Source: Coprobacillus sp. CAG:698 (GTDB lineage: Bacteria > Bacillota_I > Bacilli_A > ML615J-28 > CAG-698). Taken from it: DNA of 64,000 bases. Below, in pieces: positions 51,752 to 58,324 of the stretch. The stretch spans positions 155,848 through 219,847 of the forward strand of contig HF988734.1 of the NCBI GenBank assembly GCA_000431235.1, in the 5' to 3' direction. A program made the translations under genes and the position numbers. A model generated the notes under the pieces. It searched no databases. It worked only from the letters and a program-made list of their open reading frames with translations, and was not told the origin of the DNA. Position 1 is the stretch's first letter, and the number at the start of each line of letters is the position of its first letter.

Positions 51752-51806
51752 GTTGTTATTTTAATAACTATATGCGTGTTAATAGATTAGCGAGGTGATA
51801 ATTATG
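51752..51806 (+). promoter_or_regulatory. Copy 1 of the bipartite motif GTTGTTATT-N14-CGTGTTAAT followed by an RBS and an ATG; near-replica of the holin-operon promoter/leader
   Basis: GTTGTTATT 51752–51760, CGTGTTAAT 51775–51783, GAGGTGA 51792–51798, ATG 51804 opening a 5-codon ORF (MKMNN*). Compare 58271–58324. Confidence 0.6.
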
Positions 51807-51917
51807 AAAATGAATAATTAATTCAACAAAAAATTCAAAATGATTCACAGTTGTGTAACGAATTGAGTTTCTGTATAAAATTTAAATTTGCAAAATATTT
51901 AGAAAGGAAAAGAGAAA

Positions 51918-54900
51918 ATGGATAAAAGTAAAATTAATCAGACAGAGTTAGACTATAGCTGTAGTGTGGGAAAATCGAAAATAAATATATATAATGGTAG
52001 GCTTTTATTTAACCACTTTGATGATAGTATAAATTCAAAGAATTTGAAAATGAGCATAGCACACATATATAACTCACATTTTGAAGAACAAGATACACAT
52101 ATGGGTAATAATTGGAAGTTAAATATACAACAATTTTTGTATTATGAAATGGGAAAATATATTTTAATAGATGAGAACGGCATGAGTCATGATTTTGTAA
52201 TGTGTTCTCAAAATTTATACTATGATACTAGTGGTTTAGGATTAATTTTAAATATTAATAATAATCAAAACATTATAACTGATCAATCAGGTAATAAATA
52301 TTATTTTGAAAATAACAGAATAGTAAAGAAGGAAATGAATTATAATACAACAACATTTGAATATTATCAATACGATGAGAATGGTAGGTTAATAACAGTA
52401 TATAATTCCAAAAAACCTAATAATAAATTTATTTTTGAATACAAAGACAATTTACTTTCATCAATAAAAACAATTGTAAAAGGAAATATAAGTTTTCAAC
52501 TAAATTATTTTTATAATGAATTTAATTGCTTAATAGAGATTGATTATTTAAAAGAAAATATTTGTATAGATAAAGTAATTATTAAAAACGAAAATAACAA
52601 AATGACATATGTATCTTTATTATCTAGTAAAGAGGGATTCGGTATAGAATATTTAGGTAATAAAGTTAGCAAAATAAGTAAAGGCTTAATTGATATATCT
52701 GAAAATATTACAATCACAGAGGACAAATTAAAAATTACAAATAATGTATACTGCAATGATAGCAAGTTTGTTGGAGAAAAAGACATTTCCAAAAAATATG
52801 ATTATGTTATAAATGGATTTCAAGAAAATAAAATTTTATTATTAAACAATTTTACATATCAATATAGCTACACTATCGTACAAAATGAAAAAAACTTAAA
52901 AATGATTTACTATCAAAATGAAAAGGGATATACAGTATCATTATTAGAAGCAAACAATGGAAATGTTAATGATTTGAGAAGTTTAGAAAAAAATCCAGGA
53001 AGATCATTTTTAAATAATGGTATAGATTTAGAATCAATCAATACACGAAAAGCACATTTTTTGTCAACAGACTATATAATTAGTACAGAAAATATAATGT
53101 CTGAAAATTTAAAAGATATAGATAATTATGTAGGAAAAAAATGTAATAAATATTGTTATTTTAACTGTACTTTTTGGTTGAAATTAAGTCAACCATTAAA
53201 TAATAAAAAAGTAAGACTCAAAATTGTAAAGTACAGTGGACTCGATAATAAAGCAGAGGCGTATGCATTAATAGACAATAGTGCGATAAATAGTTGGCAA
53301 TATGTATCAATCCCTATAAAAATTTCTACAAAAGAGGTAAATTTTGCGGAACTTAAATTTGAAGATAATAATCAATCAAATACTTTTAAAATTGCAGATA
53401 TGAGATTATGTTATCAAGAATCGTCAAAACTATGTCTAACTAATGGAACTGACTGGGACTATTTTGATAATATTAAAGAAATCAAGTATATACCAATAGA
53501 TAAAGAAGATGAATATGTAACTCAAACTATTAATGATAACATCTACATTACAGAAAAAGATTTACAAATGATGTATTTAGATAGATTCAAAAAAAATGGG
53601 AATAGTAATATAACTAATGGTTATTTAATGTATTTCTCAAATGCGCAAATTGTAAAATATGTCAAGAAAGTAATATTATCAACAGATACAAAAGATTTTG
53701 AAATGAATTTTTCATCGGATGAATATGGGGCAAATTCAAGAACTAACTTCTTTTATGAAATAAAATCGCCAGATGGTAACATGTATAATTATAATTTCTT
53801 GCATTATTTTAAAAATAAAGATATTGATGGGAAAAAATATGATTGTATATGCCAAATTTCAGAATCTAATAAATTTTTAAAAAAAGATAATGATCATAAA
53901 GAGAGTTTTACTGCTACATATTTTGATTTATATGGTAATCTGCTATTAGAGCAAGATGAATATGGCTTAAAAAAATCATATAAATATGATGAATATAATA
54001 ATCTATTATCAAAAAAAATTTTTAGTGATGAGACAAATGAAGCAATTATCTATAAGTATACAACTTCTGATACATGCGATACTTCATTAGAAAATAATTG
54101 CCTAATCAAAAACGAATATGACTCAAATGATGGTAAGTTATTAAAAACTACTTTTAAGGGAAATGATGAAGATGAAAGTAAAGAATATGTAATAAGTAAC
54201 CAATATCATAGAACTAACGATTCGATAACAAAAACTTTTGATAATTTAGGAGCACAAAATAATATAAAATATGGAAAAAATGGTAAATCCCAATTAATTT
54301 TGCCAATGGATTATAATGCGGAAAATATGTATGGATATGAGGTTGAATATGATCATTTCGGTAATCCAACAAAGTATTATTATATTTCTAGAGATGGAAA
54401 TAATGTAACAAAAAAATTAGTTCAAGAAACAAATATTAATTTAAATAACAATACGATGCAAACTGTTTATCATAGAAATGAACAAGAAAAAGATGTAGTA
54501 AATATCAAACTTGACAAATATGGTAGAACGGAATCTATTAATGAAAATGGTAAAATTACGACATTTAAAAGACAAAATCTATGGGAAAGTCAAGGAGATT
54601 CAGAAGTTGAAGAAATGTATGATCCATATAGTGGGTTAACACATAAATATGAGTATGATTTTTTTAACAATTTATCAGGCTATCAAATAAAAAAAGATAA
54701 TGATATTAGATTAAAAGCTAAAAAAAGCAATTATACATCTACTGAATATGAGTTTAATGATGATGGTATTTCTTCATATGCTAACAATATAGATTTTGCT
54801 TCTGATAAATTCATAAATCCACGTATTGAAAAAACTAAAGATAGAGAAAAACTTTATACAATGTACACATATGATGACTTAGGAAGAACAAAATCGAAAA

Positions 54901-57622: not shown

Positions 57623-58267
57623 ATGAATAGCCAAATAAAGATGATAATAGATTACAAAAAAGATAATAATGATGAATTGTTTGAAAAAATTGTTCTCTCT
57701 TTTAGACCTCTTTTTTTAAAATATATAAATAAGATTCACAAAAATCATAGAGATGATATGTATCAAGAATTATTGTGTACACTTTTATCAGTAATACGTA
57801 AATTTGTAATTACTGATTATGATATAGATAATAATTATTATAAAGCTTTTGTAAATAAATATAAAATAGAATTATTGGAAAGTTCTAATGAAATAAAAAA
57901 TTTAGAATATAAATTGTTTTGCAATGAAAACCAATTTATAAAATATTTAAATACATCGTTAAATAATAAAATTATTGATTATTATCGTAATTATAAATCC
58001 AATTTGTTAAATAATGCCATTAGTCTAAATAGTTATATATATGAAGATGTTGAATTGTTAGAAACAATAGAAGATAAAGCATACCAAAAAACGGATTTTT
58101 TTGATATGTACAATTTTTCTGAAAATGAACTCGAGTTCTTAAAATGTTTTCTTGAAAATGGTAAAGTGCTTTCTGAAGAAAAAGTGGCAAAAAAATTAGG
58201 AATATCTCAACAAGCAGTTAATAAAAAAAAGAAAAAAATAATTAAAAAATATATAAATAGATATTAG
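57623..58267 (+). CDS. TcdR/UviA/BotR/TetR-family alternative sigma factor (group 5 σ70)
   Basis: 'ELFEKIVLSFRPLFLKYINKI' and 'FIKYLNTSLNNKIIDYYRNY' parallel TcdR 'DLQEILFMFKPLVKKLSRVL' and 'IVKYIHNSLLNKTKNLSRRY'. The C-terminal HTH 'LGISQQAVNKKKKKIIKKY' parallels 'LNISRQAVNKTEKRAIIKLKK'. Confidence 0.8.
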   Translation: MNSQIKMIIDYKKDNNDELFEKIVLSFRPLFLKYINKIHKNHRDDMYQELLCTLLSVIRKFVITDYDIDNNYYKAFVNKYKIELLESSNEIKNLEYKLFCNENQFIKYLNTSLNNKIIDYYRNYKSNLLNNAISLNSYIYEDVELLETIEDKAYQKTDFFDMYNFSENELEFLKCFLENGKVLSEEKVAKKLGISQQAVNKKKKKIIKKYINRY

Positions 58268-58270
58268 TAA

Positions 58271-58324
58271 GTTGTTATTTTATGATTAGGTACGTGTTAA
58301 TATAATAAGGAGGTGATAAATATG
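58271..58324 (+). promoter_or_regulatory. Copy 3 of GTTGTTATT-N13-CGTGTTAAT + AAGGAGGTGA RBS + ATG of the holin operon
   Basis: GTTGTTATT 58271–58279 and CGTGTTAAT 58293–58301; ATG at 58322. Confidence 0.6.

Follow-up and report, generated by a model that had tools for sequence, protein, structure and literature searches.

The analysed window is a 64-kb stretch of contig HF988734.1 from Coprobacillus sp. CAG:698. It contains a cluster of co-oriented genes encoding an RHS-repeat polymorphic toxin with its putative immunity protein, a divergent sigma-70-family factor, and an operon for a small transmembrane (TM) protein, a holin and an aBig_2-domain protein (Table 1). A two-box motif, GTTGTTATT-N13/14-CGTGTTAAT, is present three times (P_rhs, P_sigma and P_holin). 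Each site is at the expected promoter position and heads one of the three co-oriented transcription units, and the two-box motif is a real, conserved signal.

Table 1. Features of the cluster, in window positions unless a related locus (L number) is given
Feature	Position	Strand	Description
CN-hydrolase gene	50805-51692		precedes the RHS unit
Terminator-like hairpin and T-run	51726..51743	+	7-bp stem with 4 GC pairs, TTTTTTTT tail; ends the CN-hydrolase gene
P_rhs	51752..51783	+	-35-like GTTGTTATT at 51752-51760, 14-nt spacer, -10-like CGTGTTAAT at 51775-51783
Relic ribosome-binding site GAGGTGAT and 5-codon mini-ORF (open reading frame) MKMNN*	51790..51821	+	ATG at 51804 to TAA at 51821
RHS/YD-repeat polymorphic toxin, 1591 aa	51918..56693	+	DUF6531, RHS core, C-terminal Tox-REase-9 nuclease
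Putative cognate immunity protein, 189 aa	56707..57276	+	weak DUF4304 match
Terminator-like hairpin	57471..57499	+	12-bp stem and T-run; after the RHS-immunity unit, before P_sigma
P_sigma	57547..57578	+	GTTGTTATT, 14-nt spacer, CGTGTTAAT; kept in relatives
Divergent sigma-70-family factor, 214 aa	57623..58267	+	sigma2, insertion, sigma4; region 4.2 is GISQQAVNKKK
P_holin	58271..58301	+	GTTGTTATT, 13-nt spacer, CGTGTTAAT; kept in relatives
Small protein, 99 aa	58322..58621	+	N-terminal TM helix, coiled-coil tail; phrog_1863 phage family; weak XhlA-like tail
Holin, 97 aa	58623..58916	+	Pfam Phage_holin_5_2/Hol44 (PF16079); phrog_1129 holin
aBig_2-domain protein, 384 aa	58909..60063	+	3'-terminal gene of the holin operon; overlaps the end of the holin gene
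Hairpin after the aBig_2 gene, before copA	60139..60158	+	called on both strands; + strand tail TATATTTACA is T-poor
Accessory genes in relatives	L007:7504-8892; L009:12089-13465; L012:11767-13131; L013:1761-4534; L010:11560-13241

Pattern scans covered both strands of the window and of about 190 kb of related loci. In the window, GTTGTTATT-N{13,14}-CGTGTTAAT gave three exact matches, all on the + strand (0 expected), and no match was obtained across 100 dinucleotide-preserving shuffles. The exact 9-mers were each present solely at the three sites. Their one-mismatch variants (70 and 19, respectively) were near chance, scattered and never paired, and no further credible site was found in the window with up to two mismatches allowed per box. 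The distance to the start codon was 20 nt for P_holin (small-TM ATG), 44 nt for P_sigma (sigma ATG) and 134 nt for P_rhs (RHS). P_holin starts 4 nt past the sigma stop codon, inside the 54-nt gap between the sigma and small-TM genes. Both P_rhs and P_sigma are preceded by a terminator-like hairpin, and the one before P_rhs insulates the RHS unit from the upstream CN-hydrolase gene.

These results confirm the observation made in the preliminary description of this DNA, which had reported three sites with identical 9-mers, 13-14-bp spacers (14, 14 and 13 nt, in order) and no further copy in the window. It had placed the sites before the RHS gene, the sigma gene and the holin operon. The first two assignments hold; for the third, the gene next to the site is that of the small-TM protein, the first of the operon, and not the holin gene. 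The sigma gene had been named as one of the targets, and the placement of P_sigma fits autoregulation.

The 214-aa protein is a divergent sigma-70-family protein. It matched TIGR02937 with 43.2 bits (cut-off 42.9) and phrog_351 'RNA polymerase sigma factor' (1.7e-8), and a PDB profile search aligned its full length with S. aureus SigB. In Foldseek, the matches of its AlphaFold (AF2) model (pLDDT 84) were almost all sigma factors in RNA polymerase (RNAP) complexes. Neither Pfam Sigma70_r2 nor Sigma70_r4 matched the protein above threshold.

For comparison with group-5 sigma factors, a reference set was taken from annotated plasmids: TetR, BotR, a C. baratii UviA-like protein, C. perfringens UviA and a C. 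difficile TcdR-like protein. The sigma family aligned to this TcdR/BotR/TetR/UviA group with 97.9% in hhalign (E 4e-13, 174 columns), and the five group-5 sequences taken singly scored 75-94% against the family profile. Lower values were obtained for the controls: E. coli RpoE (1.7%), FliA (22.6%), FecI (17.6%) and two other pE88 sigmas (9-32%). A tblastn search of the sigma against plasmids retrieved no UviA, BotR or TetR, only a marginal match to S. aureus SigH. The BotR model TIGR03209, which does match UviA and the TcdR-like protein, had no match to the window sigma (E<=0.01) or to three other family members (E<=0.1). The family carries an insertion of 40-70 aa. SRQ in region 4.2 has been proposed as a marker of TcdR-related group 5 sigmas (PMC4031146); it was found in the five reference group-5 proteins, whereas S-Q-Q was found in 17 of 17 aligned family members (LGISQQAVNK). 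Shorter relatives (175-188 aa) without the insertion exist, and one of them (P0106) has SRQ, which suggests a continuum. Among the profiles tested, the TcdR group was the closest, and the sigma appears to be a divergent relative of it or to belong to a sister clade, outside the group proper. The TcdR-family label of the preliminary description therefore stands as the nearest group by profile comparison and falls as a canonical membership, given the SQQ, the insertion and the failure of the BotR model to match.

Two loci with such short distant relatives were obtained for comparing the -35 flavour with region 4.2 variants. At one, P0058 (with TQQ) keeps GGTTGT; at the other, P0106 (with SRQ) keeps a -10 box, GGTTATATATAGTG, with neither GTTGT nor TTTACA. 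In L132:1-4543 and L133:1-4543, a distant 180-aa SRQ relative is encoded just 3' of genes for a large RHS/PT-HINT toxin and immunity-like proteins, with no holin nearby; its upstream region retains the -10-like GGTTATATATAGTG and contains neither GTTGT nor TTTACA.

Relatives of the sigma were sought in protein and contig collections. Among 5.8 billion proteins, a word-indexed search retrieved 22 matches. With a profile compared exhaustively against 1.84 billion representatives, 75 matches were obtained at E<=1e-30 and 173 at E<=1e-10; the sigma family is rare. The loci examined comprised contigs with a 98%-identical sigma from gut metagenomes (L001-L004), contigs with sigmas 51, 44, 38 and 33% identical (L005-L008), and nine more full-length relatives (L009-L017). 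The latter came from Erysipelotrichaceae or 'Bacilli' metagenome-assembled genomes (MAGs) of animal or human guts, one of them binned as Bacteroidales. When genome contigs were scanned, a single-sequence sigma query found nothing and an alignment-based query recovered relatives.

A footprint collection was made from 13 loci, i.e., the window and 12 related loci whose sigmas are 26-51% identical to that of the window. It contained 21 sites of the form GTTGT-N18-21-GTT(A/T), with one N23 outlier and one site with GTAT (L016) as exceptions. The sites were positioned 5' of the sigma gene, 5' of the small-TM/holin operon, or at both places (seven loci), and the sigma gene was preceded by the motif in 11 of the 12 related loci. 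A loose scan for GTTGT-N19-21-GTT[AT] over 256 kb on two strands gave 33 matches, 22 of them at expected positions. The spacer sequences between the boxes were completely diverged across loci. Boxes that are kept while spacers are randomised, at 26-51% protein identity, are a signature of selection and not of recent duplication.

The upstream box varied by lineage: GGTTGTTA was replaced by ATGTTGTTTT in L009 and L010 and by GGTTGTATTT in L012 and L014. Within one genome, the same flavour was found at both promoters. Such a joint shift of the -35 box is expected if a single, locus-encoded and co-evolved factor reads both. The recognition helix LGISQQAVNK was near-invariant across the family (alignment of 17 members), which agrees with the constancy of GTTGT. 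In the downstream box, the CGT of the window was CAT, CGG, TGT, TAT, TTG or TTC in relatives, and GTTA(T/A) stayed.

Exact copies of the motif were also searched for in metagenome and viral contigs. The pattern GTTGTTATT-N13/14-CGTGTTAAT occurred in 95 metagenome stretches, one match each, representing about 40 distinct sequences. None of the 95 stretches, from a collection that lacks the source organism, encoded relatives of the sigma, holin or RHS protein. These are chance matches that carry no information on the size of the regulon, and the viral contigs likewise gave one chance match. Of the metagenome matches, 51 were one 31-nt string, GTTGTTATTGTTGCAAAGTAACCGTGTTAAT, identical in 51 contigs (L037, L042-L129), many of which were labelled human gut. 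It is a chance pattern match in an abundant gut organism, unrelated to the sigma/holin/RHS system.

Two further features were observed in the sigma 5' regions of relatives. In L014:9540-9912, the whole promoter unit GGTTGTATTTT...GTAGTTTATATAGTG is repeated in tandem 3.9 times directly 5' of the sigma gene (period of 96 bp, 91% identity); the repeats could serve as a dosage or amplification device for an autoregulatory promoter. In a sub-clade (L009:9947-10003, L010:9947-10003, L012:9948-10003 and L017:1-36), the sigma 5' leader contains GAGGAG...CUCCUU...GGAGGGG, an element absent from the window sigma leader. In the minimum-energy fold of these leaders, the Shine-Dalgarno sequence is base-paired to CUCCUU (z -2.8, -1.6, -5.7 and -3.5). 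The upstream GAGGAG may compete for CUCCUU, and the modelled element may thus act as a translational switch on the sigma.

The boxes were compared with known promoter classes. The TcdR-group consensus is TTTACA at -35 and GTTATA at -10, and GTTAAT is the -10 element of the BotR-recognised orfX1 promoter (PMC4031146). When read directly, the tetX, ntnH and ha promoters had the form aGGTTTACAAAAAAT-N-ATGTTATAT with the -35 box GGTTTACA; the window motif is aGGTTGTTAtttta-N-CGTGTTAAT, and the -10 region of relatives is (C/T)(A/G)(T/G)GTTATA. GTTAAT was present at all three window sites, and GTTATA, GTTAAT or GTTATT at most related sites. The -10 box matches elements recognised by BotR/TetR. The -35 box of the window and relatives was (G)GTTGT(T/A)(A/T), never TTTACA. 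A GGTT start and an A/T-rich run past the -35 box are common to the new motif and the TcdR-group promoters, whereas the three central -35 bases are GTT in the former and TAC in the latter. The distance from GGTT to GTTA was 23-26 nt in the new motif and 24 nt in the TcdR-group promoters. The changed -35 box may be tied to the change of R to Q in region 4.2, a tidy correspondence that we infer from the sequences. The CGT-bearing downstream box had been likened to -10 regions of extracytoplasmic function (ECF)/group-5 sigma factors. Promoters of the ECF class (group 4) have an AAC core at -35 and a conserved CGT at -10, and an anti-sigma gene is usually co-transcribed with the sigma. That class was rejected: there is no AAC core upstream, the CGT is not kept in relatives, no anti-sigma-like gene is adjacent, and RpoE and FecI scored low against the family profile.

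The RHS gene is linked to the holin operon in relatives. In L007, L009, L010, L012, L013 and L017, it lies 3' of the holin, co-oriented and tightly packed, in the order sigma, promoter, small-TM, holin, one or two accessory genes, RHS, immunity, and is a distal member of that operon. The window differs: its RHS-immunity pair stands 5' of the sigma gene and has its own promoter copy. A local alignment of P_rhs with P_holin showed homology over some 70 nt, with a score of 62 where shuffles reached at most 32, and the mini-ORF at 51804-51821 corresponds to the 5' end of the small-TM gene. P_rhs is a duplicate of the holin-operon promoter and carries a decayed small-TM gene start. In L007:5527-5560, a relic ribosome-binding site and mini-ORF (MKIVITI*) lie before the sigma gene, behind a promoter copy. 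Together, the two relic mini-ORFs suggest repeated duplication of a holin-promoter cassette with the first small-TM codons. The same CN-hydrolase gene also flanks the module in L008:8859-9722, before the sigma gene (sigma 33% identical); the chromosomal insertion site is therefore conserved, and the internal order alone was rearranged. A small regulon joining the RHS toxin to the sigma/holin module had been proposed from the motif. With the element kept in 12 related loci, the RHS genes of relatives inside the holin operon and the promoter duplicated, this idea is backed more strongly than by the motif alone. The earlier interpretation was largely right in spirit; the corrections concern the family label, the -10 logic and the origin of the RHS site.

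Other genes of the cluster and its relatives were characterised as follows. No N-terminal hydrophobic signal was detected in the RHS protein (maximum KD15 of 0.09 over the first 60 aa by hydropathy). The 189-aa protein is likely to be the immunity protein, as its position directly behind the toxin C-terminal domain is typical. Where the sigma is 98% identical, strains have further orphan Tox-REase-9 C-terminal fragments of 260 aa, either one or two, and every fragment is paired with a gene for a 186-aa immunity protein (L001:8292-9654 and L002:41-2850). These cassettes lie between the RHS-immunity pair and the sigma gene, are absent from the window, and form a typical RHS displaced-tip array. 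The accessory genes between holin and RHS in relatives encode a Mur-ligase-like protein (about 455 aa) or a nucleotidyltransferase (NTP_transf_2), as checked in L007 and L010; in the window, the aBig_2 protein takes their position.

A prophage origin of the module was considered and rejected. The small-TM protein, holin and sigma match phage families, but the flanks are chromosomal genes kept in relatives, and no prophage genes flank the module. For leader RNA structures or riboswitches, the window RHS and sigma 5' leaders folded no better than shuffles (z 0.54 and 0.25), and Rfam gave no match within the cluster. The sole Rfam match in the window was a bacterial small signal recognition particle RNA at 16900-16995 (RF00169, 48.7 bits).

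Taken together, we consider the three sites to be promoters read by RNAP with the cluster-encoded sigma, so that the sigma, holin and RHS toxin would belong to one autoregulated regulon (probability approximately 0.7). The -35 box GGTTGTTA would be contacted by GISQQAVNK, the recognition helix in region 4.2, and the -10 box (C)GTGTTAAT by sigma region 2. With core RNAP, the sigma would initiate at P_sigma (positive feedback on its own gene), at P_holin (switching on the small-TM/holin/aBig_2 operon) and at P_rhs (switching on the RHS toxin-immunity pair). Toxin, immunity protein, small-TM protein, holin and aBig_2 protein would then be made together. The RHS toxin would leave the cell through or owing to the holin device, either non-lytically or by lysis of a subpopulation, the latter as for the Tc toxins of Yersinia; since the RHS protein has no signal peptide, the holin module is its likely exit route. 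Recognition of the boxes by the sigma, autoregulation and holin-dependent release are all proposed by analogy with TcdR/TcdE/TcdA-B and UviA/UviB/Bcn5.

Several observations weigh against this interpretation. TTGTTA and GTTAAT each share 4 of 6 bases with the sigma-A hexamers, at a spacing of 18-19 nt, so the housekeeping sigma may recognise them weakly. The predicted P_holin leader is very short, with the Shine-Dalgarno sequence beginning about 8 nt past the -10 box, and the GGTT-GTTA spacing of the window is 1-2 nt longer than in the tetX and ntnH promoters. The family assignment is also soft, as S. aureus SigH scored 91.9% against the family, on region 2 only, and thereby scored as well as single TcdR-group proteins.

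The hexamer likeness would also suit ordinary sigma-A promoters whose conserved boxes are operators for a DNA-binding regulator, perhaps the 214-aa protein acting as a helix-turn-helix activator or repressor. P_holin holds an overlapping perfect TATAAT, and the Pfam sigma domains of that protein were below threshold. Even so, this explanation is unlikely. The three sites were absent from the listed matches (9/12 or better) of a sigma-70-type consensus scan, and such matches were no commoner here than in shuffles. The housekeeping consensus is TTGACA-N16-18-TATAAT, with A at -10 position 2 and T at position 6; A is the key base at position 2 for sigma-70/sigma-A, and T was present there in 21 of 21 sites. 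The TATAAT overlap is not kept in relatives, sigma2 and sigma4 regions are recognised in the 214-aa protein by profile and fold, and two boxes with a variable spacer sequence have a promoter-like, not an operator-like, geometry.

It is less probable still that the sites are read by another alternative sigma encoded elsewhere (e.g., ECF or SigH-type), with other targets for the local one. The resemblance of the window CGT to ECF -10 elements and the SigH score of region 2 are in its favour, but the CGT varies in relatives, an AAC -35 box is missing and no anti-sigma gene is adjacent. Moreover, the motif travels with the sigma gene over 12 loci in different genomes, its flavour changing jointly. 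Finally, the repeats would be inert leftovers of local DNA duplication, without regulatory function, if the homology of P_rhs and P_holin (including the relic ribosome-binding site and ATG) and the roughly fourfold tandem unit of L014 were the whole story. This is very improbable, as P_sigma has nothing beyond the two boxes in common with the other sites, and the boxes persist across the related loci while the spacers are randomised.

The open-access literature yielded no description of a module combining RHS, holin and a TcdR-type sigma. As a tentative proposal, the loci may represent an undescribed TcdR-like clade of gut Erysipelotrichaceae/'Bacilli' (about 75 clusters at 50% identity, E<=1e-30), with SQQ and a GTTGT -35 box, that controls a phage-derived XhlA-like/holin device exporting or releasing RHS toxins. 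If true, RHS toxins of Gram-positive bacteria would have a route independent of Sec and of the type VI and type VII secretion systems (T6SS, T7SS), with a promoter code readable from genomes. The TcdR/UviA design (dedicated sigma, private promoters, holin, signal-less toxin) would reach beyond clostridial pathogens to the RHS polymorphic toxins of uncultured gut commensals. The two groups would also show sigma/promoter co-evolution as a natural experiment, with SRQ paired to TTTACA in one and SQQ to GTTGT in the other, and the -10 box unchanged. The locus bears on the exit from Gram-positive cells of RHS toxins that have no signal peptide, LXG domain or T7SS, and it makes the holin route directly testable, and the motif is a simple aid for annotating regulon members in related MAGs.

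Among known systems, the PBSX late operon of Bacillus subtilis is switched on by a phage-derived sigma-like factor, Xpf, and comprises xhlA-xhlB-xlyA. Both have a sigma-like factor and a holin gene behind that of an XhlA-type small membrane protein. PBSX has the structural genes and the amidase of a defective prophage, whereas the cluster described here has no flanking prophage genes. The BotR/TetR promoters of the botulinum and tetanus clusters share the -10 GTTATA/GTTAAT, preceded by (A/C)(T/G) and followed by A/T-rich sequence, as well as a GGTT-initial upstream box, the A/T run next to it and a similar overall spacing. They differ in the -35 centre (TAC instead of GTT) and the slightly shorter spacing; neither BotR nor TetR lies next to a holin gene or controls an RHS toxin.

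In Yersinia entomophaga, the RHS-repeat components of the Tc toxin exit by a holin cassette that is co-regulated with the toxin (PMC10847046), as may, by analogy, the RHS toxin here. That organism is Gram-negative and uses holin/endolysin/spanin lysis and another regulator, without a dedicated sigma and promoter motif. More generally, the exit of signal-less toxins is linked to a holin device for TcdE/TcdA-B, TpeL and probably UviB/Bcn5 (PMC9527704, PMC10467148). In the present cluster, too, as in export modules of the TcdE, TpeE and UviB type, the holin is co-located and co-oriented with a sigma and a large signal-less toxin, and its role in export would be analogous. The bacteriocin module UviA-UviB-Bcn5 of C. 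perfringens pIP404 and relatives likewise has, in this order and on one strand, a sigma, a small holin-like membrane protein and a signal-less antibacterial toxin (PMC9527704), and an inter-bacterial killing function is common to both. UviB is a BhlA-family peptide, unlike the Hol44-type holin; the toxin family differs, the -35 box is TTTACA-type, and an amidase/endolysin is always adjacent there, with none seen here.

TcdR and the PaLoc of Clostridioides difficile combine a cluster-encoded, autoregulated sigma with its own non-canonical two-box promoters before toxin and sigma genes, a holin gene and a large toxin without signal peptide (PMC10467148, PMC9527704). The same arrangement is found here, with autoregulation proposed by analogy. 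The differences lie in the -35 box (GGTTGTTA versus TTTACA), region 4.2 (SQQ versus SRQ) and the size of the sigma (214-250 aa with the insertion versus about 180 aa). The holin here is Hol44-type, behind an XhlA-like small TM protein, a TcdC-like gene is absent, and the cargo is an antibacterial RHS nuclease toxin with immunity instead of a glucosylating cytotoxin. By this analogy, the gut bacterium probably switches on its toxin, export pore and regulator together, much like C. difficile does with TcdR.

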